Assembly: GCA_046497275.1 (NCBI GenBank)
Contig: JAWOFX010000054.1
Span: forward strand, 3,880-67,879
DNA: 64,000 nucleotides
Direction: 5' to 3'
DNA from: Promethearchaeia archaeon
Lineage (GTDB): Archaea > Asgardarchaeota > Lokiarchaeia > Sigyniarchaeales > SOKP01
Notes under the pieces: generated by a model
The model's database searches: none
Seen by the model: only the letters and a program-made list of their open reading frames with translations
What the model was told of the DNA's origin: nothing
In this document: piece by piece, positions 10,034-52,480 of the stretch
Layout: each line of letters opens with the position of its first letter
Numbering within the stretch: position 1 is the first letter of the stretch
Made by a program: the position numbers and the translations under genes

Positions 10034-10050
10034 ACTATTTCTTAGAAAAT

Positions 10051-16431: not shown

Positions 16432-16440
16432 AACAATATT

Positions 16441-32780: not shown

Positions 32781-32971
32781 ATTAAGAGAATAATTTATTT
32801 TCAATTTAATTAATTATTTTAATCACAATATATGTGTTAAATAAAATAAAGAACTGTAGAAAAAAGTAAGAAACTTTTGAATTTGGAAAAGAAATATTTA
32901 TAATGGATGTTTAAATCAAAATATTAATTCAAATACCATTATATTATTTCAAAAAGTCATAAAAAACAATT

Positions 32972-33730
32972 ATGGTTAAAACGAATAGTAAAATAAAACG
33001 AATTGGGTTTTTTTTTTTAATGGTATTTCTTTTTCAAACAATTTTTATATTTTTTTCGTTGAATAATTTTCTAAATATTTTCTCTTCTCTTCAATATGCT
33101 TATATTTCTGGGAATTCCCTCTATATGCCTTTTATACCATATATTAATTTATTGTTATTTCTCCCTCCAAGATTTTTCCATCTTCACTTTACATTAGGTA
33201 ATTTAGTAGATATTCTCATATTAATCAGCCTTTCATCTGTTATAGATTCAATTTTCTACCATGGTATTTTAAAGAGATTTTTAGACGAAGAAATAGAGTT
33301 TGCCAAATATTCTTTATTGGACATCGATTTTGGATATAAAAATAAAAAAAATATTCAAGAACAAGGAATTTGGTTATTTCCCATGAATGATAAGATATTA
33401 GATAACAAAGGAAGAGAAAATACAATGGATATTGGAAAATTTTTGAACTTAAACGAGATGAAAAAATCTAGATCTTTTGCATTTAAATTCAAAAATGCGG
33501 TATATAGGAATAAAATTCGAAAATTTATATTCCTTCATAAAAATAACATTTGCTTACTTAGAAATGAAAAAAACATATTTCTTCATACTGGTTTAACCTA
33601 TTCCCATATAAAAACTATTTTTTCACTCCCTTTTGAAAATTTAAGATTTTCTCCAAAAATAAATTGTTTATTTTTAAAGAGCTTTCGAAAAACTTGGAGA
33701 ATGACAAGAAAATACAAACCAATTCAATGA
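32972..33730 (+). CDS. Phe/Asn/Lys-rich membrane-associated hypothetical protein; paralogue of 50713..51504
   Basis: A 252-codon open frame in extremely AT-rich DNA, which is unlikely by chance. N-terminal TM segments. Three blocks collinear with 50713 (SVIDSIFYHGILKRFLDEEIEF / IIESSIFFYIWEACMEDLDFY; IFSLPFEN / IFNSLPFN). Confidence 0.4.
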   Translation: MVKTNSKIKRIGFFFLMVFLFQTIFIFFSLNNFLNIFSSLQYAYISGNSLYMPFIPYINLLLFLPPRFFHLHFTLGNLVDILILISLSSVIDSIFYHGILKRFLDEEIEFAKYSLLDIDFGYKNKKNIQEQGIWLFPMNDKILDNKGRENTMDIGKFLNLNEMKKSRSFAFKFKNAVYRNKIRKFIFLHKNNICLLRNEKNIFLHTGLTYSHIKTIFSLPFENLRFSPKINCLFLKSFRKTWRMTRKYKPIQ

Positions 33731-33784
33731 ATTAAATATAATTTTTAAAATTAAATAAAAAATAATTAAAAGAGGTTATATAAA

Positions 33785-35149
33785 ATGGATTGGACTGATG
33801 AAATAGAAAATCTGTTTCAGAAAATAATGAATTTAACTCCCGAAGATTTTCGTGCTTCAATAGCGCCAATGTGGCATGATGCTGCCGAAAAAACTGCAAG
33901 ATTAAGAAATTCGGGATTTGTAAGCGAAGATGATCTGTTAACTGCATTATTTGATATCACCCCGGAAGCATTCCAACCCGCAGTAGTGAAGGATTTAACT
34001 GAAATCGGTATAGATACTGATCGTTATATTAAGTTGTCTGAAATAAGAAAAACATATGCCAGAACATGGAATGAAATCAGTGGGGCATTTAAACCAGGAG
34101 TTTACCATTTTACAATGTACATTACAGATCGTTGTAATCAAAATTGTTTACATTGCGCAGCTTCCGTAACGGAAAATAGAGAAGAATTATCAATACAAAA
34201 ATGGATTCAAATTATAGAAAATATAGAACAAACTCTTAGAAAACGAGGTAGAAATGGCTGTTATATTTGGTTCGGTGGAGAACCAACTGTACGGAAGGAC
34301 TTGAAAGATTTAATCGAATATTGTGGAGAAAAGGGATATTATCAAGCAGTTGCAACGAATGGAATCCTATTTGATGAGAAATTAGCAAAATTATGTGCTA
34401 AAGTTAAAATGAGTCATGTCTTTATCAGTTTAGACAGTACAAAACCCGAACGGGCTGCAAAAATAAGAGGTCACCCTAAAGCTTATGAATCTGCTATTAA
34501 AGCGATAAAATTAGCTAATGAATATGGATTGTTTACTATTGGAAATGCCACAATTCAAAAAGAAAATTTTGATGAATTAGAAGAGATACAAAATTTATAT
34601 GATTCTTTAGGAGTTATTCCATATTTTAGAGCAGTTATTAAGAAAAGGAGTGCAGATAAAAATTGGGAAGAGATCGGACTTGATTATGATCAATTTCGAG
34701 AGTTTTACAATTTTAAATATAACAATGTCGTTGATGCGATTCGAAGTGGAAAAGCATCGAGTATAAACAAATTTTATACTTGGGATATGGTCCCTTTTAT
34801 GGAAATTCCTAAAAATGATGAAGAAAGAGCCTCTCTAGAATGGGGAGTTGGTTGTCAAGCATGCAGATCGATTTCAGGAATTGATATCAATGGCGATGTT
34901 TTTCCATGTGATTATCCGTCTGAATTAATCTTAGGCAATGTTCTTGAACAGAGCTTTGATGAAATTATGGAATCTGAGATTTTTAAAGCCATTCGAGACA
35001 GGAAAATTAAAGGTAAGTGTGCTGATTGCCATCATCTGGAATTATGTGGTGGTGGTTGCAGAATTCATGCGGAAAATGAAACTGGTGACTTTCTCGCTGC
35101 TAGCCCTTATTGTTGGCATATAATGGATCATAAACACAATGAAGAGTGA
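33785..35149 (+). CDS. Radical SAM/SPASM enzyme with N-terminal PCP_red-like helical module
   Basis: aa 1-84 are the shared module (MDWTDEIENLFQKIMNLTPEDFR...). Then ITDRCNQNCLHCA (CxxxCxxC) and GGEPT. C-terminal SPASM Cys set CQAC...NGDVFPC...GKCADCHHLELCGGGC...C. GAGGT RBS. Confidence 0.8.
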   Translation: MDWTDEIENLFQKIMNLTPEDFRASIAPMWHDAAEKTARLRNSGFVSEDDLLTALFDITPEAFQPAVVKDLTEIGIDTDRYIKLSEIRKTYARTWNEISGAFKPGVYHFTMYITDRCNQNCLHCAASVTENREELSIQKWIQIIENIEQTLRKRGRNGCYIWFGGEPTVRKDLKDLIEYCGEKGYYQAVATNGILFDEKLAKLCAKVKMSHVFISLDSTKPERAAKIRGHPKAYESAIKAIKLANEYGLFTIGNATIQKENFDELEEIQNLYDSLGVIPYFRAVIKKRSADKNWEEIGLDYDQFREFYNFKYNNVVDAIRSGKASSINKFYTWDMVPFMEIPKNDEERASLEWGVGCQACRSISGIDINGDVFPCDYPSELILGNVLEQSFDEIMESEIFKAIRDRKIKGKCADCHHLELCGGGCRIHAENETGDFLAASPYCWHIMDHKHNEE

Positions 35150-35160
35150 TGTGAAAAATT

Positions 35161-36585
35161 ATGGAATGGGATGAAAATACAAAAAAAATATTTCAGCAGA
35201 TTGTCAAACAAATACCAGGTGGTTTTAGATCCGCTGTTGAACCACAAATAGTGAAAGCAGCAACACAGAGATGTTTAGATAGAAATGAATCGTATATTAA
35301 TGAATCAGATGTTGTTTTAGGAATTTTTGATATTATTCCTGAAGCATTTAAAGCAATGATGGTTGAAGATCTGACCGCTTTAGGAATAGATGTCCAAAGA
35401 TATATAGAATTGAAGGAAATTAAAGATCGCCTTAAGCTTTCTTGGGATAAATTAGAAAAAGCATTTCATCCTGGGGTTATACATTTTGCAATGTACATAA
35501 CAGATAAATGTAATATGAAATGTATTCACTGTGCTGCAGATGATTATATACCCAGAAAAGAATTACCTAAAGAAAGATGGTTTGAGATTATTGAAAATTT
35601 GGAATCTGGTTTAAGAAATCATGGTCGAAGAGGTTGCTACATTTGGTTTGGAGGAGAACCTACTTTACGCAAAGATATAGGGGAGATCATGGAATTTTGT
35701 AATAAAAATGATTATTTTCATGCTATTATCACTAATGGAGTAGAATTCAATGAAGATTTTGCTAAAAAGTGTAAAGATAATAATATGAGCCATGTTTTTG
35801 TAAGTTTTGACAGTGCTGATCCTGAAAAAAATGATTATATACGTGGTTTTAATAATTCTCTTCCATATGCTAAAAGAGCAATAAAAAATTGTTTAAAATA
35901 TGGACTTTTTGTCTGTTCATCGATTACTGTGATGAAGCAAAATATAAATGAACTTGATGATCTTGATTCCTTATCTTTAAAATGGGGAGCACAACCATTT
36001 TTTAGACCAGTAGTTAAACAAAATCGGGCTGCAGAATATTGGGATGAAATCGGACTTAACAAAGAAGAATATCATAAACTATACAATTATAAATATGAGA
36101 GAGCCATCAAAAAAATAAGAAATGCAGAGGCAGGCAGTCTTCCGGCTTACGAAATTTACGAGATGATGCCTTTTATGGAATGTCCGAAAAATGACAAGGA
36201 ATTAAGTGCAATTGAATGGGGTGTGGGTTGCTTAGCATGCAGAACGATGATGGGGGTAGGTATCGATGGCACTATTTTTCCTGCTGGATATCCAACTAAA
36301 TTAACTCTTGGAAATGCTTTGAAGGATGATTTTGACGACGTTTTAGATTCACAACTTTATAAAGATATAAGAGATAGAAAAAAGATCAAGGGAAAATGTG
36401 CAAAGTGCCATCATTTAGATTTATGTGGAGGAGGTTGCCGAGTCACTGCTGAATATATCACAGGCGACTTTTTTGCTTCTTTTCCTTTCTGCTGGCATGA
36501 AAATGATCATGAACATAAGAATTGCTTGAATCATAAGCAAAGAGTTGAAACAGAAAATATTCTATTAAAAAAACCTATTGAATAG
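35161..36585 (+). CDS. Radical SAM/SPASM enzyme with N-terminal PCP_red-like module (tandem paralogue of 33785..35149)
   Basis: Collinear with the upstream gene. ITDKCNMKCIHCA. SPASM region CLAC...DGTIFPA...GKCAKCHHLDLCGGGC, where the GxxxxC cysteine is Ala (codon 36283-36285). Confidence 0.8.
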   Translation: MEWDENTKKIFQQIVKQIPGGFRSAVEPQIVKAATQRCLDRNESYINESDVVLGIFDIIPEAFKAMMVEDLTALGIDVQRYIELKEIKDRLKLSWDKLEKAFHPGVIHFAMYITDKCNMKCIHCAADDYIPRKELPKERWFEIIENLESGLRNHGRRGCYIWFGGEPTLRKDIGEIMEFCNKNDYFHAIITNGVEFNEDFAKKCKDNNMSHVFVSFDSADPEKNDYIRGFNNSLPYAKRAIKNCLKYGLFVCSSITVMKQNINELDDLDSLSLKWGAQPFFRPVVKQNRAAEYWDEIGLNKEEYHKLYNYKYERAIKKIRNAEAGSLPAYEIYEMMPFMECPKNDKELSAIEWGVGCLACRTMMGVGIDGTIFPAGYPTKLTLGNALKDDFDDVLDSQLYKDIRDRKKIKGKCAKCHHLDLCGGGCRVTAEYITGDFFASFPFCWHENDHEHKNCLNHKQRVETENILLKKPIE

Positions 36586-36615
36586 TCTCATAAAATTTTA
36601 AAAAAGGGATAAAAA

Positions 36616-38031
36616 ATGCGAGTTTTATTGATTTCAGTAAGTAGAGAAATAGTCCATGTAATGACACCACCATTAGGTGAGTCTTATATTGCTTCCTATC
36701 TAATAAATAAGGGTCATCAAGTTAAAATATTAGACTTAACCCATAGTAATGATTCAGAGAATGATATCTCAAAAGCGATAAACAATTTTAACCCACAACT
36801 AATAGGAGTTTCTATTCGAAATATTGATTCAACAACATATCCTGGTAATTTGTTTTTTTACTTACCAGCAAGAAAAATTATTAAATATATTAAACATATC
36901 GCAGAACCAGATGTGCCGATAATACTAGGAGGAGCAGGATTTTCTATTTTTTCAGAAGAAATCCTAAAGGATTTAAATCATTCCCTTGGAGTAATTGGTG
37001 ATGGGGAACAAGTTTTTGCTGAAATCTGCAAAAGGGTAGAGAAACAAGAGGATTTAAGAAAAATAGAAAAAGGAATTTGCTATTTAGATAAAAATGGAGA
37101 ATATCATCAAAAAGCCCCTTGGCGAGTAAACAATCTCGATAAATTACCAATTCCGGCAAGACATTTAATCGATAATCAAGCATATTTAATCGATCCTTTA
37201 GATGTGAATGGAGAAATATGGGGTAATATTCAAACTAAGCGTGGTTGTCCAAAGAATTGTATTTATTGTAGTTATAAATATATAGAAGGTTCTAATGTGC
37301 GATATAGAAGTCCAAAAAGTGTTGCCGAAGAAATAGAAGTCCTAGTTAATAATTATGGAGTAAAAAACATATTTTTCGTGGACAGTGTGTTTAATTTAAG
37401 CTATGATCACCTAAAAAATACTTGCCAAAAAATAATAAAAAAAAATCTTGATTTAAATTGGGGCGCAAATTATGTACCTGATAAAAAATTTATCAATCTA
37501 TTACCTCTTATGAAAGAGAGTGGTGCAATTCATCTAGCAACTGGTATAGAATCATTATCAGGAGAAATGCTCAAGAGTATGAAAAAAGGAAGGAAAAGTG
37601 AAGATGCTATAATCACATCTAAAAGATGTTTTGAACTTGAAATAGAGCAATTAATCCATATAATAATAGGGGGTCCGAATGAAACACTTAAGACTGTTCG
37701 TGCTTCTTTAGATTTATTAGAAACAATTAAGAATTATCAAAATAAAATTTGGCAAGGTGATGGAGATGTTTTATTATTTATAGGAATTAGGATATACCCA
37801 CATACAGAAATCCAGGTTATAGCTGAAGAGGAAGGAATAATAGTTGAAGATGAGAATTTACTACGGCCGAAGTTCTATATATCTCCAAAAATTAAAGAAA
37901 TTGAACTTTTTCAAGTCGTTAGGAAATATTGTGCTAGAAATCCCAGATGGATGGCTCCAGGATTAGGAATAAACAATCCAGATGGTTTTGCAGAATTAAG
38001 TAATATGCAGTTTGCAAAATATCAAACTTGA
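36616..38031 (+). CDS. B12-binding-domain radical SAM protein
   Basis: MRVLLIS...LIGVSIRN...IILGGAGFS N-terminal domain, then QTKRGCPKNCIYCSY. Confidence 0.75.
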   Translation: MRVLLISVSREIVHVMTPPLGESYIASYLINKGHQVKILDLTHSNDSENDISKAINNFNPQLIGVSIRNIDSTTYPGNLFFYLPARKIIKYIKHIAEPDVPIILGGAGFSIFSEEILKDLNHSLGVIGDGEQVFAEICKRVEKQEDLRKIEKGICYLDKNGEYHQKAPWRVNNLDKLPIPARHLIDNQAYLIDPLDVNGEIWGNIQTKRGCPKNCIYCSYKYIEGSNVRYRSPKSVAEEIEVLVNNYGVKNIFFVDSVFNLSYDHLKNTCQKIIKKNLDLNWGANYVPDKKFINLLPLMKESGAIHLATGIESLSGEMLKSMKKGRKSEDAIITSKRCFELEIEQLIHIIIGGPNETLKTVRASLDLLETIKNYQNKIWQGDGDVLLFIGIRIYPHTEIQVIAEEEGIIVEDENLLRPKFYISPKIKEIELFQVVRKYCARNPRWMAPGLGINNPDGFAELSNMQFAKYQT

Positions 38032-38077
38032 ATCTTTTTAAATTAGAATTATATAATAATAAAAAAAAATTAGAAAA

Positions 38078-39250
38078 ATGAATTGGGAACAAAAAATTAA
38101 AGAACTTTATAATAAAGTTGTAGAAAGAATACCAGAATCTGTCCGACCAATTATAAAGCCAGCATTAGCTGAAGCTGCTAAAGAAAAATGTACTGAACGT
38201 AATGGAACAGAGATATCTGAGGTCGATTTAGTTGTCGCCTTATTTGAAGTCACTCCTCCGGCATTTCAACCGACGATGATTGAAGATCTAAAAAAGCTTG
38301 GTGTAGATTATGATAGGTATTTAGCAAAAGTGAAAGGAGATTTTAAATGTAATAATGATCTGGAGATTATGGTTGAGGATACTCTAAAATTATGCAAAAT
38401 AGCTGGAATTAATGGAAATAAACCAGCTATTTGGAAGGTTATAAATGTTTATGAACCCTTTTTTAGAGGTTCTTCCATCTCTATAAGAACAACTACGAAA
38501 CCAATCGAAAAGAGAGATGTATCGGTAAGATATGTAGAACTTATGCATCCACACAAACCAGATGCGTATTCGACTGCTATTAATGAAGGACTTATTGAAA
38601 ATAATGGCCATATCATTCATGACGCTATTAAAGAGGTAATAAATAAATTTCAGATTATGGGATATGGAATCGATCTAGATGCAAGAAAAGGATTATCAAA
38701 AATATGGCCTTTTGTGGTACCAGGTTCTTTGGATCCAATATTTGACTTGGAAAATTATCCTGAAAGTGTAAAAAACTACAAAGCATATTTTGATAAACAT
38801 AAATTAAACATTTTTAGTCTTTTTGCTTTTGATTTCTGTCATTACACTACAAATATTTATATCATGCTTAAAAATCCTTCAGCTAATTCATTAGATGTAT
38901 CTAAAAAATTAGTAAGTGATTTAGGATTTAGTTTACCTTCGGATAAGGTTATGGAAAGTTGCGCTAAAGCAGCACATTTGAATTATACATTTAATTGGGA
39001 TGATGAAAAAGTACAAAGGCTTTGTTTTGGAGTTACATGTCAAAAATCTCAAGAAGTCCCTACAGATCTTCATCCTCTCATCAATAAATTTATCGAAAAA
39101 TCTCCATTTCAAAGCGAAATTCATAAATTTATATATGGAGTGACCTTTACTCCGGATGATATTTATTATAAAATCGAAAATGATTACAACGGTACGATGG
39201 TTGATTTTTTGTTGATGGGAGCTCAAGCAGGGATTAATTCATACAAATGA
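38078..39250 (+). CDS. ABBA-type aromatic prenyltransferase (NphB/CloQ/Orf2-like) fused to N-terminal PCP_red-like module
   Basis: aa 1-84 are the shared module. The remainder aligns, from my memory of NphB, in its C-terminal half: YTFNWDDEKVQRLCFGV vs TLNWETGKIDRLCFAV, and FIYGVTFTPDDIYYKIENDY vs LVYGLTLSPKEEYYKLGAYY. Confidence 0.6.
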   Translation: MNWEQKIKELYNKVVERIPESVRPIIKPALAEAAKEKCTERNGTEISEVDLVVALFEVTPPAFQPTMIEDLKKLGVDYDRYLAKVKGDFKCNNDLEIMVEDTLKLCKIAGINGNKPAIWKVINVYEPFFRGSSISIRTTTKPIEKRDVSVRYVELMHPHKPDAYSTAINEGLIENNGHIIHDAIKEVINKFQIMGYGIDLDARKGLSKIWPFVVPGSLDPIFDLENYPESVKNYKAYFDKHKLNIFSLFAFDFCHYTTNIYIMLKNPSANSLDVSKKLVSDLGFSLPSDKVMESCAKAAHLNYTFNWDDEKVQRLCFGVTCQKSQEVPTDLHPLINKFIEKSPFQSEIHKFIYGVTFTPDDIYYKIENDYNGTMVDFLLMGAQAGINSYK

Positions 39251-39285
39251 GAATTTTATATTACATTTAAATAAGAGGTGATTAA

Positions 39286-40431
39286 ATGAAATTTATTATT
39301 GAAGGAAATTATGATATAGGTTTATTGGATAAAATAAAAGAAGAAGATTTACCCATAAGTCATATAATTTTACATGTTCCGAAAAATCCAATAGGAAATA
39401 GTTCAATTTTCTTACCAAAAGACCAACCGTCTTTTAAAGAATTTGAAAACTATACAAATGCTGTTCAAGAATCTGGGTTTATTCCTATCGCAGGATTAGA
39501 TTCGACTTGTCAAGGTAATTTAGAAGCTCATATGCAACATTATGAGGCAACGAAAAATTTATTGAATTCTTTAGAAAATTTAAATTATAGAAATATTCTA
39601 GTTTCTGCTCCCAACAATGTTGGTTTCATTAAAGAAAATTATAGTGAAGTAAATATTTTTCTTTCATATTCACAATATGTGACATCTACCAATAGAGCTA
39701 AGATTTTTTTTGATATTGGAGTTGATTCTATTATTCTACACCCAGATATAAACAGATCCTTTGGAGCTTTAAGGAATTTCATTAAAATGAAAGAGAAAAA
39801 AACCAATTCATATGAATTTGTAATTCCTCTAAATATCGGGTGTAATTGGGGATGTATTTACTGGTATCAGCACCATAATCTACAAAGTCATAGAACAATC
39901 AATTCTCCCATATCAAATGAACAAATAAATATATCGGACATAGAAAATAGCTTTGATTATCCCATATTAAATTGTTGGAAGAATCGTCTCAAAAGTCCTC
40001 AAAATATATTGAAATCAGGTTGGATTAGCCCATATAATTTCTCCGAATATATTAATCTGGGATATGAAACATTTTATCTTTCGTCATATAAAATGTCAAA
40101 TGATTGTATAATTAATACACTGAAATCCTATCTAGAAGCAAATATCGATGATAACTTCTTAGAATTAATAAGCATACCTTATCCTTATGGAGAGTATTGG
40201 AATGATGAATATAAACTATCTTCTTTTTTTAAATTTGATTCGGACTTAATAAAAGAATTCTGTAAAAAAATACCATATGAAGAACATTATCCAAAAGAAA
40301 ATAAGATGATAAGTTATTGTAATGAATTTAGTAAAAGGATAAAGATAAAAGATCAAGAGCTTAGAGAAAAGGTTTTAGATATAATAAATCATAAGCTAAA
40401 TGAAATTGAAAAAGGATCTATTAAGAGGTAA
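39286..40431 (+). CDS. Divergent U32-like TIM-barrel protein (paralogue of 40437 and 49092)
   Basis: GAGGTGA RBS. Same layout as its neighbours (KFIIEGNYDIGLLDKI vs KLTVATNWDYNLIDEL; ...VSAPNNVGFIKENY...IILHPDINRSF...IPLNIGCNWGCIYWYQHH), but only two Cys in the cluster region. Confidence 0.45.
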   Translation: MKFIIEGNYDIGLLDKIKEEDLPISHIILHVPKNPIGNSSIFLPKDQPSFKEFENYTNAVQESGFIPIAGLDSTCQGNLEAHMQHYEATKNLLNSLENLNYRNILVSAPNNVGFIKENYSEVNIFLSYSQYVTSTNRAKIFFDIGVDSIILHPDINRSFGALRNFIKMKEKKTNSYEFVIPLNIGCNWGCIYWYQHHNLQSHRTINSPISNEQINISDIENSFDYPILNCWKNRLKSPQNILKSGWISPYNFSEYINLGYETFYLSSYKMSNDCIINTLKSYLEANIDDNFLELISIPYPYGEYWNDEYKLSSFFKFDSDLIKEFCKKIPYEEHYPKENKMISYCNEFSKRIKIKDQELREKVLDIINHKLNEIEKGSIKR

Positions 40432-40436
40432 AAAAA

Positions 40437-42479
40437 ATGAGAATATCTTTAGCATGTAATTGGCGGATGGATTTACTACATAAACTGGAAAACGAGCCCG
40501 AATCGCTTAAAAATCTTTATGATTTTTATGGAACTTTCGACTTGAGTTTTACAGGTACAGGAAGACCTTTCTTTCTAATGGCAAAGAGAAATAAAGAAGA
40601 AATTGAGGAATTTATAAATAAAGTCCATGATTTAGGATTAAAATTCACTTGGTTATGGAATGGAATGTGTCTAGGATATCATATGTTCAATCAAGAAGAG
40701 CAAACAAAAGCTCTTAAGGAGCTAGATTGGTTAAGCGATCTTGATGTTGAATATCTTACTGTAGCAGATCCTTATTTGGCGAAATTTGCTAAAAAATATA
40801 GTCCAAATTTAAAATTGAAAGTATCCGTTATTTCAGAGGTAAATTCTCTCTCTAGAGCATTAGAATGGGAAAAAATAATTGGAAAAGAAGGAGTTATAAC
40901 GTTATCAATAATGTTAAACCGTAATTTTCCCCTTCTTAAAGAAATAAGAGAAAAGGTTGATTGTGATATAGAACTTCTCACAAATGATTGTTGTTTAAAT
41001 GAATGTCCGTTCAGATTTTTTCACTATTCCGAATGTTCCCATGCAAGTCAGTCGTATGATAAACTAGAAGGTTATTATAATGATTGGGCTACAATTGCAT
41101 GTCAGAATCAGAAAGTCTTCAAACCTAGACAAATTATCATGGCAAAATGGATCCAACCAAAAGACTTAGATAAATATATAAACATCAATATAGATTATTT
41201 TAAGATTTCTGGAAGGAGGTATGGAACAGCTTGGTTATATAGAGCTTTAAAATCCTATAGTAATAAATCTCATAAAGGAAACCTTGGTGAGATATTTAAT
41301 GGATATTCTTTCGTATCTGATCCCTTAGAATTAGCAGGAAATCAGTTTTCAGAATTTTCACTTAAACAAGAAAAAATGGGAGTGGACGCAGATAATCAAA
41401 GTATCATGCTGAGTATACCCGATTTCAATGCTCAATTGAAAGCAGAGGCACTATCAGACTTGATTGAGAAAATGCCTTTCAAAGGGGAAAAATGTGCTGA
41501 AAATTGTGGAGTAACATGTTTTTATTGCGACACATTTATAGATCGCGCATACTTTATCCCCTCTGGGAAATCCAATGATTCATATCGGAATTATATGAAA
41601 TTCCTCTATGATTATCTAAATAAAGGAGAAATGTTTGTACCCAAAGAAAAAAGAACACTAAAACCACCAACAAAGGAAACTGAATCCGACACGTATTTTG
41701 GGTTTAAATGGACTCCAGAAGCGGAAAAATTTCTTGAAGAGACGATGTTAATTGTACCAGAAAGTATGCAACTGGCTGCAAAAAAAGGGATCGGAATGAC
41801 GGCTGAGAGAACAGCAGAAAAAAAAAATCTAGATTATGTTGATAAAGATCTTATAATTTCTATAACGTTCCAATTAGTTCCTCAACCATTCAAACATGAT
41901 TTTTATGATTTTTGTCTGGAAAAAGGAATAGTTCCTCAGAAATATTTAAATGAGGATGAAATAAAATCAATCAAGTCTTTACCTTATGCTACAGACATTA
42001 TAAAAAAAACAGCTGAAGAACGAGGTAGACTTGTTGGAAGAAAACAACTTGAAAAAAAATCAAAAAAAAAACCAAAAGTGATACCAAATATGAATACAAA
42101 AAAAGAATGGGAAGCGTATTTAACTCGCTTCATGAAAGCATATAATGAGTTACCGGATGTAGAATCAATGTTAGAACCTGTAGCACCTCTTGTATTTCAA
42201 TATAAAATATCTGACAGACCAGAGATGAATTATTGGCAAAAGATTGAGAAAAATGAGATGAAGTGGGGAATGGGAGAATATGAAGGAGAGCAAACCCCAA
42301 CTGTGATCCATAAAACGAATTTTGACACAATAAAAAAAGTTAATTCTGGTGAAACAAATCCTATTGAAGCAACTATGGCTGGTACTTATGTCATTGAAGG
42401 AGATGCTACAAAACTTATGGCTTGTGCACCTCTTTTACCATTGAATGCTAAAGCTCATGAAAAAGCTATCAAAATGTGA
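40437..42479 (+). CDS. Multidomain protein: U32-like Fe-S TIM barrel, Cys4 motif, PCP_red-like module, Lys-rich linker, SCP2-like lipid-binding domain
   Basis: U32-like layout (ISLACNW..., LTVADPYLAKFAKKYSPNLKLKVSVISEVNS, IELLTNDCCLNECPFRFFHYSEC). CAENCGVTCFYC motif. Shared module at 41709-41948 (WTPEAEKFLEETMLIVPE...). C-terminal LVFQYKISDRPEMNYWQKIEKNE...TVIHKTNFDTIKKVNSGETNPIEATMAGTYVIEGDATKLM fits the SCP2 pattern (F.FKv.d....W.vd.k......d.ti....df..l..Gk.np..A...Gk..i.Gd). Confidence 0.6.
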   Translation: MRISLACNWRMDLLHKLENEPESLKNLYDFYGTFDLSFTGTGRPFFLMAKRNKEEIEEFINKVHDLGLKFTWLWNGMCLGYHMFNQEEQTKALKELDWLSDLDVEYLTVADPYLAKFAKKYSPNLKLKVSVISEVNSLSRALEWEKIIGKEGVITLSIMLNRNFPLLKEIREKVDCDIELLTNDCCLNECPFRFFHYSECSHASQSYDKLEGYYNDWATIACQNQKVFKPRQIIMAKWIQPKDLDKYININIDYFKISGRRYGTAWLYRALKSYSNKSHKGNLGEIFNGYSFVSDPLELAGNQFSEFSLKQEKMGVDADNQSIMLSIPDFNAQLKAEALSDLIEKMPFKGEKCAENCGVTCFYCDTFIDRAYFIPSGKSNDSYRNYMKFLYDYLNKGEMFVPKEKRTLKPPTKETESDTYFGFKWTPEAEKFLEETMLIVPESMQLAAKKGIGMTAERTAEKKNLDYVDKDLIISITFQLVPQPFKHDFYDFCLEKGIVPQKYLNEDEIKSIKSLPYATDIIKKTAEERGRLVGRKQLEKKSKKKPKVIPNMNTKKEWEAYLTRFMKAYNELPDVESMLEPVAPLVFQYKISDRPEMNYWQKIEKNEMKWGMGEYEGEQTPTVIHKTNFDTIKKVNSGETNPIEATMAGTYVIEGDATKLMACAPLLPLNAKAHEKAIKM

Positions 42480-42557: not shown

Positions 42558-44024
42558 CGGTGGTCGGTTAGCCGACATTATTTGTGAATTATCCCACCAC
42601 CCCCATGGATTTTTGCTCCACTCTAAGAAACAACCCTCTAAGGACATCTTGGTTCTGGTTAAGATTCCAGCTGCGAGAGCTCATTTTTCGAGTTCGCTCA
42701 AGTTGAATGCGCTTCCTATTCATTTTCCAAGAGTTATAAAGGAGTATTCGTGCAAGCATATCGAGATATCTTACGTTATCGTGGTTAGATCGCCATCGCC
42801 GATTAATCCGATTTAAGTCGGAAAATCCAGTTTCGATAAGCCATCGACGGCGATAAAAGAGGGATGTGCGGGATGCCCACGAGCTTTCCTTCCCTTTTGG
42901 TTTCTCGGTTGTCATTATCGTAAAAACCCTATGATATGCATCCTTCAAGGAGAGAATCCCTCTCCGAACATCTCTTTTAATACCTCGGAGAGAGAAGCCT
43001 TGTTTTGCCCGTATTATGAGGTTAACATCGCATTTAAATTGTCGCTTTGCTGCGGTAGCAGTAGAAAATGTATACCTTCGCACTCGTCCCGCTTTTCCCT
43101 CCAAGTATTCCTTAATAAATTGTTTAATTTTTTTATATTGTTTCGCAGGCATGAGTACATTGCCGCCTTTTTGTTTTATATCGTCTATCAATTCAGCTCT
43201 ATAAAACTCACGATCCATTAACACATATTTTAATTCAAATCCCAATTCGAGAAGATGAGCCAAAAAGGTTTTGATTATTGGAATCTTAGATTGTCCATTT
43301 GCCACATGCTCCAATCCTGCATAGAGATGAACATTCCGGGAAAGTAATGAAAAACCGAGATAATGACGCATCTTTTTGGTTCCCTTTTGTCGATTAGTAC
43401 CCTTAATCATTTTATCCTCACGAGACCCGAAATATGGATGTTCTGTAAAATCAATTAATACGTTCACCTTTTTTGAGATGAGTTTTGACTTGTATGCTTC
43501 TTTTAATTGTTCATCAAGACATTCACGTAAAAGTTTGCGCGCTTTCTTGATGCCAATTCCGCGTAAATACTTGTTCACTTCGGTTTGGTGTGGAACATAT
43601 CTCTTTTTACGCCCGTCTGAAAAGATTTTCCGTCTTCCCTTTTTATGACTCAGTATGTACGCATTAAGCTGCTCGCTGGTGTCGTGTATGGATCTACCTA
43701 TAATTTCTGAAAAGAAGAATACTCTTAAAAAGTCTGAATCCTCATATTTAGCGTTTTTTGCCCTTTTGACCCGCCATGTGCGAGAGATGACAACATCACA
43801 AAACTTTTTATAAAATGAGAGAATATTATCATTAGAAAGAAGTGATTTGATTCCTAACTTTTGAATAGAAGTAGGAAATATTTCTTGTAATCGCATACAT
43901 GAATATAATCACTTCTTTCTTTTTAATTTTACGGTTATCCATCAGAGGAATAAAATCCTAAAAAATAATGTTTCATAATACCAATTGAGAGGCAGTATTT
44001 CATAGGATGGGCCAGAGACCATCG
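42558..44024 (-). mobile_element. IS4-family-like insertion sequence (boundaries approximate)
   Basis: Visibly higher G+C than its flanks. Single DDE transposase gene. Candidate imperfect terminal inverted repeats cggtggtc (42558-42565) / gaccatcg (44017-44024). No target-site duplication identified. Confidence 0.55.
42589..43896 (-). CDS. DDE transposase, IS4 family-like
   Basis: 435 aa. LIDFTEHPYFG (D), YVLMDREFY (D), YRRRWLIETGFSDLNR (Y-x2-R-x3-E signature). Confidence 0.75.
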   Translation of the reverse strand: MRLQEIFPTSIQKLGIKSLLSNDNILSFYKKFCDVVISRTWRVKRAKNAKYEDSDFLRVFFFSEIIGRSIHDTSEQLNAYILSHKKGRRKIFSDGRKKRYVPHQTEVNKYLRGIGIKKARKLLRECLDEQLKEAYKSKLISKKVNVLIDFTEHPYFGSREDKMIKGTNRQKGTKKMRHYLGFSLLSRNVHLYAGLEHVANGQSKIPIIKTFLAHLLELGFELKYVLMDREFYRAELIDDIKQKGGNVLMPAKQYKKIKQFIKEYLEGKAGRVRRYTFSTATAAKRQFKCDVNLIIRAKQGFSLRGIKRDVRRGILSLKDAYHRVFTIMTTEKPKGKESSWASRTSLFYRRRWLIETGFSDLNRINRRWRSNHDNVRYLDMLARILLYNSWKMNRKRIQLERTRKMSSRSWNLNQNQDVLRGLFLRVEQKSMGVVG

Positions 44025-47457: not shown

Positions 47458-48921
47458 TTGAAAAAATATAATATACTATTTATCCACCCCCCAATCAATT
47501 CCAGCTCGATTCAAGATGAAAGTCCTCATAAAAGACGCGGAAATTATATATTTATTCCCATGGGCGTTTTTGCTATCGCTGACCTATTGGAAAGAGAGGG
47601 TTTTAGTGTCAAAATAATAAATTTTCCTTTAGAGAAATTCCTTAATTCTAAATGGAATTTAAAAGATTTTTTAAAAAACCTTGATTTCGATATTTGCGCA
47701 ATTGATCTACATTGGATCCACAATTCTTACGGTGCTTTATATATTTCTAAGGTAGTTAAAGAAATTGATAAAAATATCAAAGTAATTTTTGGAGGTTATA
47801 GTGCTTCATATTTCCATAAACAGATTTTGAAATATTATCAAACAGTAGATGGAATTATTAGAGGAGATGGTGAAATTCCATTTTTAGAATATACTAGATG
47901 CCATCTAAGAAACAAAAATTTTGATAAAGTTCCAAATTTGACTTATAGAAATTCATCAGGCATGATAAAAGTTAATCCAATTTCCTATATTGCAAAATCT
48001 TTAGAAGATTTAAATTTTTCTAATATATCTTTAATGCACAATGCGGAGTCATATTTAAATAATAGCAGAAAAATTATGGGAATATCTTATAATGTTTCTG
48101 TTGGAAGAGGTTGTCCATTTAATTGTCCGTTTTGTGCAGGAGGAAAAAAGGCTCAAGAAAAATATTCTTGTCGAACAGAGGTAATTCTAAGGAATCCACG
48201 AAGAGTTGTTGAAGATATTTTATTTATTTATCATAATTATAATATTGATAATTTCTTTTTTGGACATGGAACTTATCCAAAAACCCTTAAGTACTGGGAG
48301 AAATTGTTTTCTATTATCAGAGAAGAAAATATCGATATTTCTGCTGATTTAGAAATTTGGAGATTACCATTTCCTAAAAAAATGGTTCAGAGTTTTTATG
48401 AGACATTCAATAATAAAAAATCTTCGTTAAGTATCTCCCCAAGAACAATCTCTTCTTCTGTCCAGAAGAAAATTGCGAAATTAGATGATCCAACATTTAT
48501 TTTCAGAAAAAGTGAAATTTTCAAGCTTATTGAAGACACAATTCAATACCGAATCCCATTAAGAATATGGTTGACAATTGGATTTCCTTTTCAAAATAGA
48601 AGAGAAATTATAAAAGATATTATGTTTGCTATAGAATGTGTATTAAAGTATGGAAAATCGAAAAAAAATCCTATAGCAATTATGAGTGAACCGTACTTTA
48701 TATTCCCAGGCTCCCCCGTATTTGAGGATCCTGAAAAATATGGAATTAAATTAAAATTAACTAATTTTCCTGAAATTGTAAATGCATTTAAGAATTCTAA
48801 AATTTCATTTTTTTATAACTTGACAAATTATGATAATAAATATTTTTCAAGTAATTTTATAAGAAAATTGAATCTGCTATTTTTCTTAATTGTAGCACCA
48901 ATGTTCCTTACAAGTGGTTAA
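47458..48921 (+). CDS. B12-binding-domain radical SAM protein
   Basis: TTG start. N-terminal Rossmann-like domain (ICAIDLHW...VIFGGYSAS), then VSVGRGCPFNCPFCAG. Confidence 0.7.
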   Translation: MKKYNILFIHPPINSSSIQDESPHKRRGNYIFIPMGVFAIADLLEREGFSVKIINFPLEKFLNSKWNLKDFLKNLDFDICAIDLHWIHNSYGALYISKVVKEIDKNIKVIFGGYSASYFHKQILKYYQTVDGIIRGDGEIPFLEYTRCHLRNKNFDKVPNLTYRNSSGMIKVNPISYIAKSLEDLNFSNISLMHNAESYLNNSRKIMGISYNVSVGRGCPFNCPFCAGGKKAQEKYSCRTEVILRNPRRVVEDILFIYHNYNIDNFFFGHGTYPKTLKYWEKLFSIIREENIDISADLEIWRLPFPKKMVQSFYETFNNKKSSLSISPRTISSSVQKKIAKLDDPTFIFRKSEIFKLIEDTIQYRIPLRIWLTIGFPFQNRREIIKDIMFAIECVLKYGKSKKNPIAIMSEPYFIFPGSPVFEDPEKYGIKLKLTNFPEIVNAFKNSKISFFYNLTNYDNKYFSSNFIRKLNLLFFLIVAPMFLTSG

Positions 48922-49091: not shown

Positions 49092-50492
49092 ATGAAACTA
49101 ACAGTAGCAACTAATTGGGATTACAATTTAATTGATGAATTAGTAAAATATCCAGTTTCAGATTTGTATGGAGTTGCACAAGAAAGCCCGGTTGGTGGAG
49201 GACGTCCTTCATTTCTATTAACATCAATCTCTAAAAAAAAAATAGAAAAATATATCAAAGAGGTTCATAATAAGGGTATGAAATTTTCATATCTTCTTAA
49301 TGCACCTTGCATGGGCAATATGGAATATAATAAAGAATATCATAAACTATTAATCAAATATATCCAATGGATAAGCGATATCGAGGTAGATAGTGTAATT
49401 GTTACCATTCCGTTTTTGATTCAAGTCATCAAAAAACAATTTCCAGAATTAAAAATACGCGTTTCTACAATTGCAACCGTTAATAGTATTAATCGAGCAA
49501 AATTTTATGAGATGCTTGGAGCCGATGAGATCACTCCTGATGTCATGATAAATCGAGATTTTAAAACATTAAAAAATATCCAAAAGGCAACTAATTGTAA
49601 AATCGTGTTATTACTAACTGATGGTTGTTTATACCAATGCCCTTTTAGATTATATCATTATAATCTTTTAGGTCACGCATCTCAAACAAATAACGAGATT
49701 GGGCAAAACTATATTGATACTTGCATTTTAAACTGTAGCATTATTAAATATTCTGATCCTGCAGAAGTTTTAAAAGCAAGGTGGATCCGTCCTGAAGATC
49801 TTTCTCATTATATGGAAATCGGAATAGATCATTTTAAAATCGCAGGAAGGCGTATGTCTACACCATGGATTCTTAGAGCAGTTAAAGCTTTCTCATCTCA
49901 AAAATATAATGGGAATCTAGTAGATATTATTCAAGGATTTTCAATGTCATTTGGTGGTTTAGAACAGAAAGATCCCAATTTAAGCTTGAGAAAAACCATA
50001 GGAGAAGAGTCTAAATCCAAATTATATATTGACAATACAAAATTAGATGGCTTTATAGATTTTTTTAAAAACCAAAATTGTATATCTATGTGTGATCAAT
50101 GCGATTATTGTGAAAAATGGGCAAATAAAGCAGTAAGATTAGATCCTGAAAAGTCTTCTAATTATTTAAAATCTCTTAAAGCATATCTTGATGATATCAT
50201 AACAAGCAGAGAATTTGGACTAAAAACTTCAGAAAGCAAAGAAGAAATAAAAAAGGGCATGAACTGGAATTCTAAAACAGAACAACTTTTCAATGAATTA
50301 ATCAATTTGACTCCATCCCAATTTAGGTCTATGGCAAAAGTAGCTATATCCTCGGTTGCTGAAGAGAATGCTAGAAAGAGAAAATCTAATGAAGTTATGA
50401 ATCAAGATATGATAAAAGCATTCATAGAGGGTACTCCAGGACCTTTTCAAGATGATATGAAGAAGGGACTTAAAAAATTTAATCTCATATAA
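49092..50492 (+). CDS. U32-like Fe-S TIM-barrel protein with Cys4 motif and C-terminal PCP_red-like module
   Basis: MKLTVATNWDYNLIDEL...GGGRPS...VIVTIPFLIQVIKKQFPELKIRVSTIATVNS...LLLTDGCLYQCPFRLYHYN. CISMCDQCDYC motif. Shared module at 50259-50489 (MNWNSKTEQLFNELINLTPSQFR...). Confidence 0.6.
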   Translation: MKLTVATNWDYNLIDELVKYPVSDLYGVAQESPVGGGRPSFLLTSISKKKIEKYIKEVHNKGMKFSYLLNAPCMGNMEYNKEYHKLLIKYIQWISDIEVDSVIVTIPFLIQVIKKQFPELKIRVSTIATVNSINRAKFYEMLGADEITPDVMINRDFKTLKNIQKATNCKIVLLLTDGCLYQCPFRLYHYNLLGHASQTNNEIGQNYIDTCILNCSIIKYSDPAEVLKARWIRPEDLSHYMEIGIDHFKIAGRRMSTPWILRAVKAFSSQKYNGNLVDIIQGFSMSFGGLEQKDPNLSLRKTIGEESKSKLYIDNTKLDGFIDFFKNQNCISMCDQCDYCEKWANKAVRLDPEKSSNYLKSLKAYLDDIITSREFGLKTSESKEEIKKGMNWNSKTEQLFNELINLTPSQFRSMAKVAISSVAEENARKRKSNEVMNQDMIKAFIEGTPGPFQDDMKKGLKKFNLI

Positions 50493-50712: not shown

Positions 50713-51504
50713 ATGTTTAAGTTCAATTTTAGGAGAATTCAATCATCTAATTTCCTTGGATTTAAATTGATTTTTACATTAATACTGATTAGCATTTTTG
50801 TTCCTTTATCTCTAGTAATTTTCTATTTTTTTGATGCTATTAATTATAAGGCATTAATTTTTGATTTTAGTAACGAATTCAAATCTCTTAATTATTTAAA
50901 TTTCTTTAAAAGTGTTCTACTTATTAATCCCTTTAAGAACACGGAGATTTTTTTTATATTTATAACAATATTGCTAAATTTAATTTTTGTGTGCATTGTT
51001 ATAGCAATAATAGAATCAAGCATTTTTTTTTACATTTGGGAAGCATGTATGGAGGATTTAGATTTTTACGTCCCATATAATTCCAAAGAAGAACATGAAA
51101 TGCCTTATGACCCATTTTTAAATCAAGAAGAAAATAATATGAAAAAAATATCTGAATCAAACAACTTTTTCGGTATAATACCATTAAAAAATTTTAATAA
51201 GAACCGAAATCATAATCTATTTTATTATGAAAATCATCTAATTAAAAAAACAAAAATTTTATTAACAAAACCCAAACAACTCCAAGATTCTTTAAGGAAA
51301 ATATCAATAAAAAGAAAAAAAAGATTTTCTTATAATTCAAATTCAAACTTTCTAATCCTTATTTTCTATATTTTTAATTCCTTACCTTTTAATTACCCAA
51401 TAAAATCTCATTTTAAAGAATCTTCATTTAATAAAGAGGGAAATATCTTCAATCTAAAATTTAGGATAAATTATGATTTCAGATTTGAATTTTTAAATAT
51501 ATGA
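50713..51504 (+). CDS. Phe/Asn/Lys-rich membrane-associated hypothetical protein; paralogue of 32972..33730
   Basis: 263 aa. Same composition and architecture, and collinear blocks with 32972..33730. Confidence 0.4.
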   Translation: MFKFNFRRIQSSNFLGFKLIFTLILISIFVPLSLVIFYFFDAINYKALIFDFSNEFKSLNYLNFFKSVLLINPFKNTEIFFIFITILLNLIFVCIVIAIIESSIFFYIWEACMEDLDFYVPYNSKEEHEMPYDPFLNQEENNMKKISESNNFFGIIPLKNFNKNRNHNLFYYENHLIKKTKILLTKPKQLQDSLRKISIKRKKRFSYNSNSNFLILIFYIFNSLPFNYPIKSHFKESSFNKEGNIFNLKFRINYDFRFEFLNI

Positions 51505-51529: not shown

Positions 51530-52480
51530 TTGAATAAAAAAATGTTTGCAATAATATTTGAATTGATTTTTCCATTGGCACTAATTGGAATCTTGATAAT
51601 TATATTCATAAAGGGAATCTTTACTAAAGCTGAGGAACGAGATTATATGACATTCGATGAATTTATTAAAGATTGGATCAGAGATCATGGTGTAGAGCAT
51701 AAGCTTGAACCATACTTTGAATCAATGAAGAAAAATCCTGCGGGAAAATTATATATGCCGATAACATATAAGTGGGGAAAATTTTTCAGTAAACTGGGAG
51801 TATCAGCAAATGAGGTCTCTATTATTAATTTGACATTATCTTTTCTTGGCTTTTATGGTGTAATTATGGCTGGGAGAGGACATCTATTAAATTATCTGAC
51901 TCGGCAACCTGCTTTCGGATCTTGGTTTATTGTTCTTGGTATTATATTTTTAGTTGCGGGAATAATAGATGGAGCAGATGGCGCAATCGCTAGATTAGAA
52001 AATACCAAGTCGGCGTCTGGTGCTTGGTTTGATAATAATATTGATAGAATCAGCGATATATTGATGTTGGTATGCTTGATACCTGGAGGACTCTCAATAA
52101 TACCAGAATACAACTATGATTTTAGATGGCTTGTGTGGACAAATGTATTATTAATCTTTATTTATGAATATATGAGAGCCAGACATCAAGGTTTAGGATT
52201 ACATGCATTACAACCAACCATAGGCGAGAGAATTTCTAGGATAATAATAATTTCTACGTTTTTCTTTATTTATGGAATCTCTAGTTTTTCGGTTTTCATA
52301 ACGTACTTAATAAACCCTTCCTTAACTTCTCTCTGGTCGGTTTCTCATAGTGGAATTATAAACTGGGTTATGATAATACATCAAATTGCTCTGCTTTTAG
52401 TAATGATTATCTCAGTGATTCGCACTATAATATTCGTATGGAAAAACTTAAAAAAAATGGACGAGAGTGAGAATAATTAG
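51530..52480 (+). CDS. CDP-alcohol phosphatidyltransferase family protein
   Basis: TTG start. Exact family signature DG-x2-AR-x8-G-x3-D-x3-D in IIDGADGAIARLENTKSASGAWFDNNIDRISD. Polytopic membrane protein. Confidence 0.85.
   Translation: MNKKMFAIIFELIFPLALIGILIIIFIKGIFTKAEERDYMTFDEFIKDWIRDHGVEHKLEPYFESMKKNPAGKLYMPITYKWGKFFSKLGVSANEVSIINLTLSFLGFYGVIMAGRGHLLNYLTRQPAFGSWFIVLGIIFLVAGIIDGADGAIARLENTKSASGAWFDNNIDRISDILMLVCLIPGGLSIIPEYNYDFRWLVWTNVLLIFIYEYMRARHQGLGLHALQPTIGERISRIIIISTFFFIYGISSFSVFITYLINPSLTSLWSVSHSGIINWVMIIHQIALLLVMIISVIRTIIFVWKNLKKMDESENN

Follow-up and report, generated by a model that had tools for sequence, protein, structure and literature searches.

Proteins of the U32 family are iron-sulfur (Fe-S) enzymes that are needed for O2-independent hydroxylations (PMC6747719, PMC10990095, PMC11574389). 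These "peptidases" are emerging as a large and mostly uncharacterized class whose known substrates are only ubiquinone and RNA and whose known members with substrates are all bacterial. The known U32 oxidases are heterodimers or have an extra cysteine-rich domain (PMC11574389). In the UbiU-UbiV-UbiT system of Proteobacteria, which acts anaerobically on a prenylated aromatic lipid, two divergent U32 paralogues are encoded side by side and have an SCP2 partner (UbiT). The oxygen donor of UbiU-UbiV is prephenate (PMC10990095), and a fusion of UbiT to UbiU is documented in Zymomonas (PMC6747719). Here, we describe a gene cluster from a Promethearchaeia archaeon (contig JAWOFX010000054.1) in which two U32 genes, one of them fused to an SCP2 lipid-binding domain, lie next to each other at 39286-42479 of the 64,000-nucleotide stretch that we analyzed ("the window"; coordinates without a locus name refer to it). 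An initial annotation of this DNA had compared these genes to UbiU/UbiV/UbiT.

We put the chances at about even that the cluster is a conserved Asgard operon for a membrane-associated pathway that makes or tailors a lipophilic, prenylated aromatic compound without O2. It would be the first archaeal U32 system that is linked to lipids, with a different set of enzymes, a built-in SCP2 carrier, and a docking domain that the enzymes share. Three of our observations go beyond the initial annotation: a DUF2621/PCP_red-like domain on five enzymes, a pair of SPASM enzymes and a membrane protein as parts of the core, and relatives in bacteria. The individual protein families are known, and it is the domain, the partners, and the organization that are new: in the literature that we could search, which does not cover subscription journals, we found neither this Asgard cluster nor its short U32 paralogue, which is confined to Asgard archaea, nor the shared domain described.

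Two adjacent U32 paralogues, one fused to SCP2

The short U32 paralogue (39286..40431, + strand; 381 amino acids) and the U32-SCP2 protein (40437..42479, + strand; 680 amino acids) are encoded on the same strand with five bases between them, and their assignment to U32 in the initial annotation was borne out by Pfam, hhalign, and AlphaFold2 (AF2) models searched with Foldseek. The gathering cutoff of Pfam's Peptidase_U32 (PF01136) is 22.4 bits. The barrel and extension of the 680-amino-acid protein (amino acids 1-400; 40437..41636, + strand) scored 36.8 bits, and a third U32 paralogue of 466 amino acids (49092..50492, + strand) scored 54.4 bits. The short open reading frame (ORF) on its own scored 13.1 bits, which is under the cutoff; a profile of its orthologues aligned to the 680-amino-acid family with a probability of 98.7% (hhalign, E = 3e-16, 345 columns), and direct BLAST matches link the orthologues of the two proteins (22-24% identity, E < 1e-10). 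The third paralogue aligned to the 680-amino-acid family at E = 8.5e-84 (hhalign). The AF2 models of the 680-amino-acid and short proteins have predicted local distance difference test (pLDDT) scores of 85 and 89, and the best Foldseek match of both is 5d88, which is the sole solved U32 structure (E = 2.7e-11 and 1.5e-9, respectively; target TM-score 0.73-0.74). By profile, the barrel of the 680-amino-acid protein matched 5d88 at E = 1.2e-7. Overall, the two adjacent proteins are divergent paralogues, and both are U32 TIM barrels by profile and by predicted fold.

The three paralogues have different architectures. The short one is a TIM barrel with a helical extension; it lacks the cysteine motif ("Cys4"), the putative docking domain, and the SCP2 domain that are described below. 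In the third paralogue, a DUF2621 domain (amino acids 390-465) forms the C-terminus after the barrel and the Cys4 motif. In the 680-amino-acid protein, the barrel is followed by a four-helix DUF2621/PCP_red-like domain (amino acids 423-510; 41703..41966, + strand), by a disordered, lysine-rich tether (around amino acids 529-553; 42021..42095, + strand), and by SCP2, which makes up the last ~125 amino acids (555-680; 42099..42479, + strand). The tether has no secondary structure in the AF2 model (pLDDT of about 37-38), and its length varies among orthologues of 811-867 amino acids.

The fusion to SCP2, which the initial annotation had recognized from its sequence pattern, is supported by both Pfam and predicted structure. 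Residues 573-667 matched Pfam's SCP2 (PF02036) at 23.3 bits, narrowly over the cutoff of 21.3, and PF02036 is precomputed for many orthologues of this protein. Foldseek matched the region with a probability of 1.0 to SCP2 folds: the SCP2 domain of UbiJ (6h6o/6h6p, target TM-score 0.66-0.73), 1wfr, 4jgx, and 4uei. Alignment of the region to UbiT from E. coli gave E = 0.076 over 32 columns (hhalign), confined to the surroundings of the EGD motif.

Conserved cysteines of the U32 paralogues

The peptide strings quoted in the initial annotation are all found in the translations, and every cysteine in them is 90-100% conserved across 39 orthologues of the 680-amino-acid protein. In the same 39 orthologues, C78, C176, C186, C190, C222, C353, C357, C361, and C364 are 100% conserved. 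The last four make up the Cys4 motif (C353-x3-C357-x3-C361-x2-C364), which is encoded at 41493-41528. Residues equivalent to this set are present in the third paralogue, so both large proteins do have a cysteine cluster in the barrel and a Cys4 motif, as had been proposed. The invariant cysteines are also present in the bacterial relatives.

The short paralogue had been described as having lost most of these cysteines. By count this is accurate, as it has neither the CX3CX3CX2C motif nor an equivalent of C176, but the description is misleading. Across 40 orthologues, C75, C186, C190, and C230 are invariant and lie inside the motif GCNWGCIxWYQHHNLQSHRT, and they align in register with C78, C186, C190, and C222 of the 680-amino-acid neighbor. 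Because these four barrel cysteines stay invariant, the short paralogue is probably a conserved Fe-S subunit rather than a decayed copy.

When a profile of the 680-amino-acid family is aligned to the sequence of UbiU from E. coli (hhalign, E = 2.8e-4), C186 pairs with C169, C190 with C193, and C222 with C232; these three residues of UbiU are experimentally defined Fe-S ligands (PMC6747719). C78 pairs weakly with C39 of UbiV.

A helical domain shared by five enzymes

A helical domain of about 80 amino acids is common to five enzymes in the window: two radical S-adenosylmethionine (rSAM) enzymes with SPASM domains, a prenyltransferase, the U32-SCP2 protein, and the third U32 paralogue. Copies are encoded at 33785-34051, 35161-35427, 38078-38338, 41703-41966, and 50259-50486. 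The domain is N-terminal on rSAM-SPASM enzyme 1 (SPASM1; amino acids 1-89), on rSAM-SPASM enzyme 2 (SPASM2; amino acids 1-89), and on the prenyltransferase (amino acids 1-87). The five copies align with each other and fit a single hidden Markov model (HMM) at E values of 1e-26 to 1e-37 (for example, 2.9e-36 for SPASM1, 2.6e-37 for the prenyltransferase, and 1.1e-26 for the 680-amino-acid protein), with the consensus W..P..FR..AE..A..R...V..D...F..TP.AFQP. A scan with this HMM found the domain in no other ORF of the window. Its nearest described families are DUF2621 and, more weakly, PCP_red. Against Pfam's DUF2621 (PF11084, cutoff 27.7 bits), the copy on the third paralogue scored 29.2-32.9 bits, and the other four were below threshold at 13-27.6 bits. 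For the copy on the 680-amino-acid protein, the E values were 0.005 for DUF2621 and 0.1 for PCP_red (a weak match), and the AF2 model has helices at residues 427-495.

The domain is rare. When 1.84 billion representative proteins were searched exhaustively, just 235 matched, and nearly all of the matches of at least 150 amino acids are homologues of PTase_Orf2, U32, rSAM-SPASM, or SCP2 proteins. The others include small stand-alone copies, a fusion to an SCP2 domain, a fusion of LuxC, the domain, and rSAM-SPASM, and a NuoE-like ferredoxin. (Part of the matches are helical-repeat noise, such as saposin repeats, HEAT, and TPR.) The NuoE-like ferredoxin has two copies of the domain and is encoded in an unrelated bacterial locus of the NuoEF type, so the domain is not strictly exclusive to the cluster. 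When we searched a word-indexed database of 5.8 billion proteins with the alignment of the domain, it returned fragments of SPASM2 orthologues only. The domain has been shuffled in position: on the prenyltransferase of one related locus (L013), it is found at the C-terminus. Given this narrow distribution across enzymes and the shuffled position, the domain looks like a docking or recruitment module that is specific to this enzyme set, and such a module would point to a pathway that is physically organized.

Conservation of the cluster in Asgard genomes

In the window, which is AT-rich (~28% GC), the cluster begins with eight genes at 31341-42479, all on the + strand and with gaps of 5-191 bp. 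A B12-binding radical SAM (B12-rSAM) gene starts at 31341 and is followed by a membrane protein (32972..33730, + strand), SPASM1 (33785..35149, + strand; Radical_SAM 85 bits, SPASM 45.7 bits), SPASM2 (35161..36585, + strand; identified by profile matches), another B12-rSAM enzyme with B12-binding and Radical_SAM domains (36616..38031, + strand), the prenyltransferase (38078..39250, + strand), the short U32 paralogue, and U32-SCP2. The membrane protein has no Pfam or NCBIfam match, and it has 2-3 predicted transmembrane helices within its first ~110 amino acids. The prenyltransferase is an aromatic prenyltransferase of the ABBA class (Orf2/NphB/AmbP type). It scored 163.4 bits on PTase_Orf2 (PF11468, cutoff 22), and its nearest solved structures are AmbP1 (E = 2.5e-34, 286 residues), AmbP3, 4ee6, NphB, and CloQ. 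The initial annotation was correct that such a gene lies immediately upstream of the U32 pair, and in the Asgard loci the two always adjoin.

To the extent that they have organism names, the ~60 full-length orthologues of the 680-amino-acid protein (50-77% identity) and the 82 homologues of the short U32 paralogue (annotated as "hypothetical", where annotated) are all from Asgard archaea. We compared gene order across loci from 19 species-level genomes and across three more contigs. The core genes keep their order in about 19 loci, which are from Loki-, Thor-, and Hod-type metagenome-assembled genomes (MAGs), and two types of cluster can be distinguished. In type A, the order is an optional B12-rSAM, membrane protein, SPASM1, SPASM2, B12-rSAM, optional rSAM-SPASM-SCP2 and SCP2 genes, prenyltransferase, short U32, U32-SCP2, and U32-DUF2621 (the third paralogue). 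In type B, the order is membrane protein, SPASM1, prenyltransferase, short U32, U32-SCP2, and SPASM2. Type B is a second, paralogous cluster within the same genomes (for example BC1, Bin_204, and co228_481), and its flanks are not conserved. Because of these variable flanks, the autonomous core is the membrane protein, the two SPASM enzymes, the prenyltransferase, the short U32, and U32-SCP2. The conservation and frequent duplication of the cluster in Loki-, Thor-, and Hod-type genomes suggest that its product matters for Asgard physiology.

SPASM1 is syntenic in all of the loci, and SPASM2 orthologues are 62-83% identical and syntenic. In both cluster types, homologues of the membrane protein (phmmer, E = 1e-8 to 1e-31, with hydrophobic segments) are always encoded directly upstream of SPASM1. 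The B12-rSAM enzyme at 36616 is syntenic in type A clusters and is confined to them. The short U32 and U32-SCP2 genes have been co-duplicated as a pair across the two types; they are 5 bp apart in the window and have a 4-bp gap or an 8-bp overlap in other loci.

The third paralogue directly follows U32-SCP2 in nine of the loci (L001, L007, L008, L010, L011, L014, L015, L020, and L021). In the window, 6.6 kb separates the two, and this interval includes an insertion sequence (IS) with a DDE transposase (42589..43896, - strand; DDE_Tnp_1 49 bits) whose GC content is 0.36, as compared to ~0.28 around it. The transposase is absent from the other loci and sits where other genomes have the third paralogue. 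It is outside the system and marks a local rearrangement. We found no convincing terminal inverted repeats for the IS.

The SCP2 domain is more mobile than the window alone would suggest, as the window's sole copy is the one that is fused to U32. Sister loci also have SCP2 as part of extra rSAM-SPASM enzymes, as part of the prenyltransferase, or as one or two free-standing proteins (at 5621-7129, 7174-7569, and 14986-15360 of L001; 5460-7034 and 7069-8574 of L006; and 7188-8795 of L007). This modularity across the enzymes of the pathway argues that the substrates of several of them are lipophilic, and not just the substrate of the U32 step.

Outside of these orthologues, the relatives of the U32-SCP2 protein are ~390-amino-acid proteins (28-36% identity) that have the barrel and the Cys4 motif only and are from bacterial or unassigned MAGs. 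In a JGI contig (L024) and an Elusimicrobiota MAG (L026), such proteins are also paired, amid multiple B12-rSAM, rSAM-SPASM, GT2, and PMT_2 genes. The combination of U32 with radical SAM genes thus recurs as an anaerobic module. Another bacterial MAG (JBFMGO010000019.1; L030) encodes, at 10001-13315, an 1104-amino-acid protein that combines U32, PCP_red, two SCP2, and DUF2621 domains. Its flanks include B12-rSAMs, a stand-alone 84-amino-acid DUF2621 protein, SCP2, two aldehyde:ferredoxin oxidoreductases, Amidohydro_2, a cupin, an alpha/beta hydrolase, and polyketide-cyclase-like genes. This locus may be a catabolic variant, or another biosynthetic variant, of the same toolkit.

One type B flank (L002, 8696-16530) has two long HMG-CoA-synthase-like genes, FMN_dh, an AAR2-like protein, an Arf/Ras-type GTPase, and FA_hydroxylase. 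We considered a link to isoprenoids from the HMG-CoA-synthase-like, FMN_dh, and FA_hydroxylase genes, and dropped it because these genes are not conserved in L016 and L019.

Comparison with known systems

The likeness to UbiU-UbiV-UbiT stands at the level of design. Both systems have two divergent U32 paralogues that are encoded side by side, cysteines that fall partly on the [4Fe-4S] ligands of UbiU, and an SCP2 partner, which is fused to U32 in the window much as UbiT is to UbiU in Zymomonas. They would also share anaerobic action on a prenylated aromatic lipid, if we infer the Asgard substrate correctly. Specific kinship, which the comparison in the initial annotation might suggest, was not found. 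The NCBIfam model for UbiU (NF047963) gave 17.8 bits for the third paralogue, as compared to a cutoff of 440, and no match for the other two U32 proteins. The UbiV model of NCBIfam was not passed either, and BLAST against UbiU, UbiV, and UbiT from E. coli found nothing significant. Among the U32 proteins of E. coli, a profile of the Asgard subfamily matched TrhP best (33.9 bits; hhalign probability 95%), followed by RlhA (16.4 bits; 89%) and UbiU (9.1 bits; 41%), and did not match UbiV. Direct orthology to UbiU/UbiV/UbiT is therefore ruled out by BLAST, NCBIfam, and hhalign. The Asgard proteins and their ~390-amino-acid relatives form a separate U32 subfamily that is defined by the barrel cysteines together with a C-terminal CX3CX3CX2C.

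The two systems differ in other ways as well. The Asgard proteins have a different cysteine spacing, the extra CX3CX3CX2C on the large subunits, a third paralogue, an SCP2 domain that is C-terminal on a disordered tether, the shared DUF2621/PCP_red-like domain, and an archaeal host. Their partners are an ABBA prenyltransferase, rSAM-SPASM enzymes, and B12-rSAM enzymes instead of UbiA/D/X/E/G. With the paired paralogues, the Fe-S-type cysteines, and the SCP2 partner, the analogy in design is real, and we view the cluster as an analogue of UbiUVT and not as a copy.

TrhP (or TrhP1-TrhP2) and RlhA, which are needed for ho5U34 in tRNA and ho5C2501 in 23S rRNA, are the best E. coli matches by profile and follow the same logic of a heterodimer or an extra cysteine-containing domain. 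The similarity is limited to the barrel, however: SCP2, the docking domain, and an operon with prenyltransferase and rSAM genes are all missing from TrhP and RlhA, and the context of the Asgard proteins is not RNA-related. The U32 domain of Mk0906 from Methanopyrus kandleri (5d88) is a TIM barrel and is the top solved match for both adjacent paralogues, but it lacks conserved cysteines at the aligned positions and has no extra domain. In the UbiJ/UbiK Ubi metabolon of E. coli, SCP2 holds hydrophobic intermediates for several tailoring enzymes, and UbiJ-SCP2 is among the best fold matches to the Asgard domain. That pathway is aerobic, whereas the Asgard SCP2 is covalently fused and assembly would rely on a helical domain on the enzymes themselves rather than on a separate scaffold. 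Finally, the prenyltransferase is a clear member of the ABBA family (AmbP1/AmbP3, NphB, CloQ, and EpzP-type enzymes). Unlike the known members, it carries the DUF2621/PCP_red-like domain, and the genes around it are for rSAM and U32 enzymes rather than for a pathway to polyketides, phenazines, or indoles.

A possible pathway and its alternatives

In the operon that we propose, the prenyltransferase would prenylate an aromatic head group, and the tethered SCP2 domain would hold the hydrophobic tail and offer the head group to the enzymes. By analogy to UbiU-UbiV and TrhP1-TrhP2, the short U32 and U32-SCP2 may form a heteromeric Fe-S "U32 oxidase", which U32-DUF2621 would join in type A clusters. 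In each large subunit, C78, C186, C190, and C222, perhaps together with C176, would form a [4Fe-4S] site in the barrel, and CX3CX3CX2C would bind a second metal. This heteromer would oxidize or hydroxylate the aromatic ring in the absence of O2, and prephenate might be the oxygen donor, as it is for UbiU-UbiV. Further radical chemistry, for example C-methylation, decarboxylation, or the formation of C-C bonds, could fall to the rSAM-SPASM and B12-rSAM enzymes. The DUF2621/PCP_red-like domain may be a common docking module that gathers the enzymes into one complex or that binds a shared partner. A quinone-like or methanophenazine-like redox lipid is a possible product. The most specific version of this proposal is an O2-free "assembly line" for a new prenylated aromatic redox lipid, in which the tethered SCP2 passes the lipid among the prenyltransferase, the radical SAM enzymes, and a heteromeric U32 hydroxylase that are held together by the docking domain. 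We regard this version as rather doubtful.

Several observations weigh against the proposal. The cluster contains no UbiA/MenA, UbiE/G, UbiD/X, or polyprenyl synthase genes, and we found no ubiA, ubiD/X, ubiE, or ubiG in the 64-kb window or in the 20-kb flanks of the sister loci. ABBA prenyltransferases usually take short prenyl donors and yield secondary metabolites. The spacing of the cysteines (C-Xn-C-X9-C-X3-C-X31-C) is unlike the canonical CX6CX15CX3/4C. The closest non-Asgard U32 relatives are neighbors of B12-rSAM, SPASM, and glycosyltransferase genes and have no prenyltransferase or SCP2 nearby, and the bacterial U32-SCP2 fusion in L030 lies amid genes that look catabolic (aldehyde:ferredoxin oxidoreductase, Amidohydro_2, and cupin). 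The cluster was not detected in cultured Asgard strains by a single pattern-based scan, which could miss it. Also, the U32 literature that we cite reports no U32 activity that was reconstituted in vitro, so "hydroxylase" is used here as a predicted activity.

We weighed five other explanations. If the enzymes tailor membrane lipids, then archaeol or glycerol dialkyl glycerol tetraether (GDGT) chains or head groups would undergo radical methylation and O2-independent hydroxylation after SCP2 extracts the lipid. SCP2 modules are indeed abundant, a membrane protein is in the conserved core, and a CDP-alcohol phosphatidyltransferase recurs nearby (in the window at 51530..52480, + strand, CDP-OH_P_transf 37 bits, with archaetidylinositol phosphate (AIP) synthase as its best NCBIfam match at 68 bits versus a cutoff of 180; also near the cluster in L008, L010, L020, and L022, although not invariant). 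The best NCBIfam matches include TIGR04072 ("lipid biosynthesis B12-binding/radical SAM protein", 287 bits for the B12-rSAM at 36616 versus a cutoff of 360), HpnJ (148 bits), Tes (62), AIP-synthase-like (68), and heptaprenylglyceryl-phosphate O-acetyltransferase (71). However, these lipid-family matches are all far below their curated cutoffs, and this explanation has no role for a constant member of the core, the aromatic ABBA prenyltransferase. Furthermore, the known U32 reactions are all on sp2 ring carbons (the ubiquinone ring and C5 of pyrimidines) and not on saturated isoprenoid chains (PMC6747719, PMC10990095, PMC11574389). We therefore consider lipid tailoring to be unlikely. The combination of rSAM-SPASM and B12-rSAM enzymes is typical of gene clusters for ribosomally synthesized and post-translationally modified peptides (RiPPs), and the peptide maturases WgkB, MftC, and PqqE are among the NCBIfam and PDB matches. 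A single recognition-type domain on the tailoring enzymes would also fit RiPP logic: all of the enzymes would modify a ribosomal precursor, the shared domain would recognize the leader peptide, and the U32 proteins would be a hydroxylase or a leader peptidase. But across the 19 loci there is no conserved ORF of 25-149 amino acids in or near the cluster, other than stand-alone SCP2 proteins, and SCP2 lipid carriers are foreign to RiPP systems. With a shared domain that is all-helical, unlike the winged-helix RiPP recognition element (RRE), and a prenyltransferase of the Orf2/AmbP small-molecule type, a RiPP-like role seems quite improbable.

We give as little credence to anaerobic catabolism, in which U32-SCP2 would hydroxylate a hydrophobic aromatic or isoprenoid compound of external origin and so prime it for breakdown. 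The neighbors of the 1104-amino-acid fusion in L030 would fit this idea: two aldehyde:ferredoxin oxidoreductases, Amidohydro_2, cupin, alpha/beta hydrolase, and polyketide-cyclase-like proteins. However, prenyltransferases are anabolic, and the Asgard core always includes one; nor do the surroundings of the Asgard clusters have conserved genes for transporters or beta-oxidation. It is very unlikely that a haem- or sirohaem-type tetrapyrrole is prenylated and hydroxylated by these enzymes, even though the top NCBIfam matches of both SPASM enzymes are AhbD, NirJ2, AhbC, and NirJ1, BchE is among the matches of the B12-rSAM enzymes, and the weak PCP_red matches are to a domain named after the protochlorophyllide reductase BchB. 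The scores are 120-150 bits, as compared to cutoffs of 500-650, and there are no tetrapyrrole biosynthesis genes in the window or the sister loci. Known tetrapyrrole prenylation is by UbiA-type enzymes and not by ABBA enzymes. It would be most surprising if the U32 proteins were true peptidases or RNA hydroxylases that have nothing to do with their neighbors. Public annotations do label them as "U32 family peptidase" or "collagenase-like PrtC", and TrhP is the closest E. coli U32 to the subfamily profile; yet the score on the TrhP equivalog model is 33.7 bits versus a cutoff of 534. Moreover, these proteins are tightly co-inherited with the prenyltransferase and SPASM enzymes, with which they share the docking domain and SCP2, and their invariant cysteines form an Fe-S-class pattern that is absent from the cysteine-less Mk0906.

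If the product of the proposed operon is a redox-active lipid, then it bears on how these anaerobes conserve energy and on the lipid chemistry that was available at eukaryogenesis. The assembly-line version, if true, would give a membrane electron carrier to the closest archaeal relatives of eukaryotes. Even if neither holds, the cluster is a tractable handle on U32 chemistry, with genes that can be co-expressed, a soluble prenyltransferase, and a tethered carrier.

Other genes near the cluster

Downstream of the transposase, the window encodes a LuxE/PaaK-like adenylating enzyme (44186-45445), a sulfotransferase, a TIGR04190-like (NCBIfam) B12-rSAM enzyme (47458..48921, + strand), and the third U32 paralogue, followed by a second membrane ORF (50713-51504) that is unrelated to the membrane protein at 32972, the CDP-alcohol phosphatidyltransferase, and a second LuxE/PaaK-like enzyme (52579-53880), which is a paralogue of the first. 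Homologues of the B12-rSAM enzyme at 47458 (55-60% identical) border type A clusters on the upstream side. In L006 and L008, homologues of the LuxE/PaaK-like enzymes are again encoded close to the cluster, and in the bacterial locus L031, LuxE and LuxC adjoin the fusion protein that combines LuxC, the docking domain, and rSAM-SPASM. Activation or reduction of a carboxylate may thus be part of the wider system.

In the Thorarchaeota locus L001, a GlcD-like FAD oxidase and an HdrD/TfrB-like protein with Fer4_8 and CCG domains follow the cluster (15416-17979). These proteins could supply electrons to, or remove them from, the U32 or rSAM enzymes. The window has a similar CCG protein at 6590-7723, far from the cluster.

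We found no Rfam families or tRNAs in the window. Upstream of the cluster are genes for an MFS transporter (29191-30441, - strand) and an ADP-forming acetyl-CoA synthetase (ACD-type, 724 amino acids; 26250-28424, - strand). Farther upstream, a pair of hydantoinase/oxoprolinase A and B genes (17673-22057) has a GC content of 0.36-0.37, which is above that of the rest of the window, and may have been acquired horizontally.

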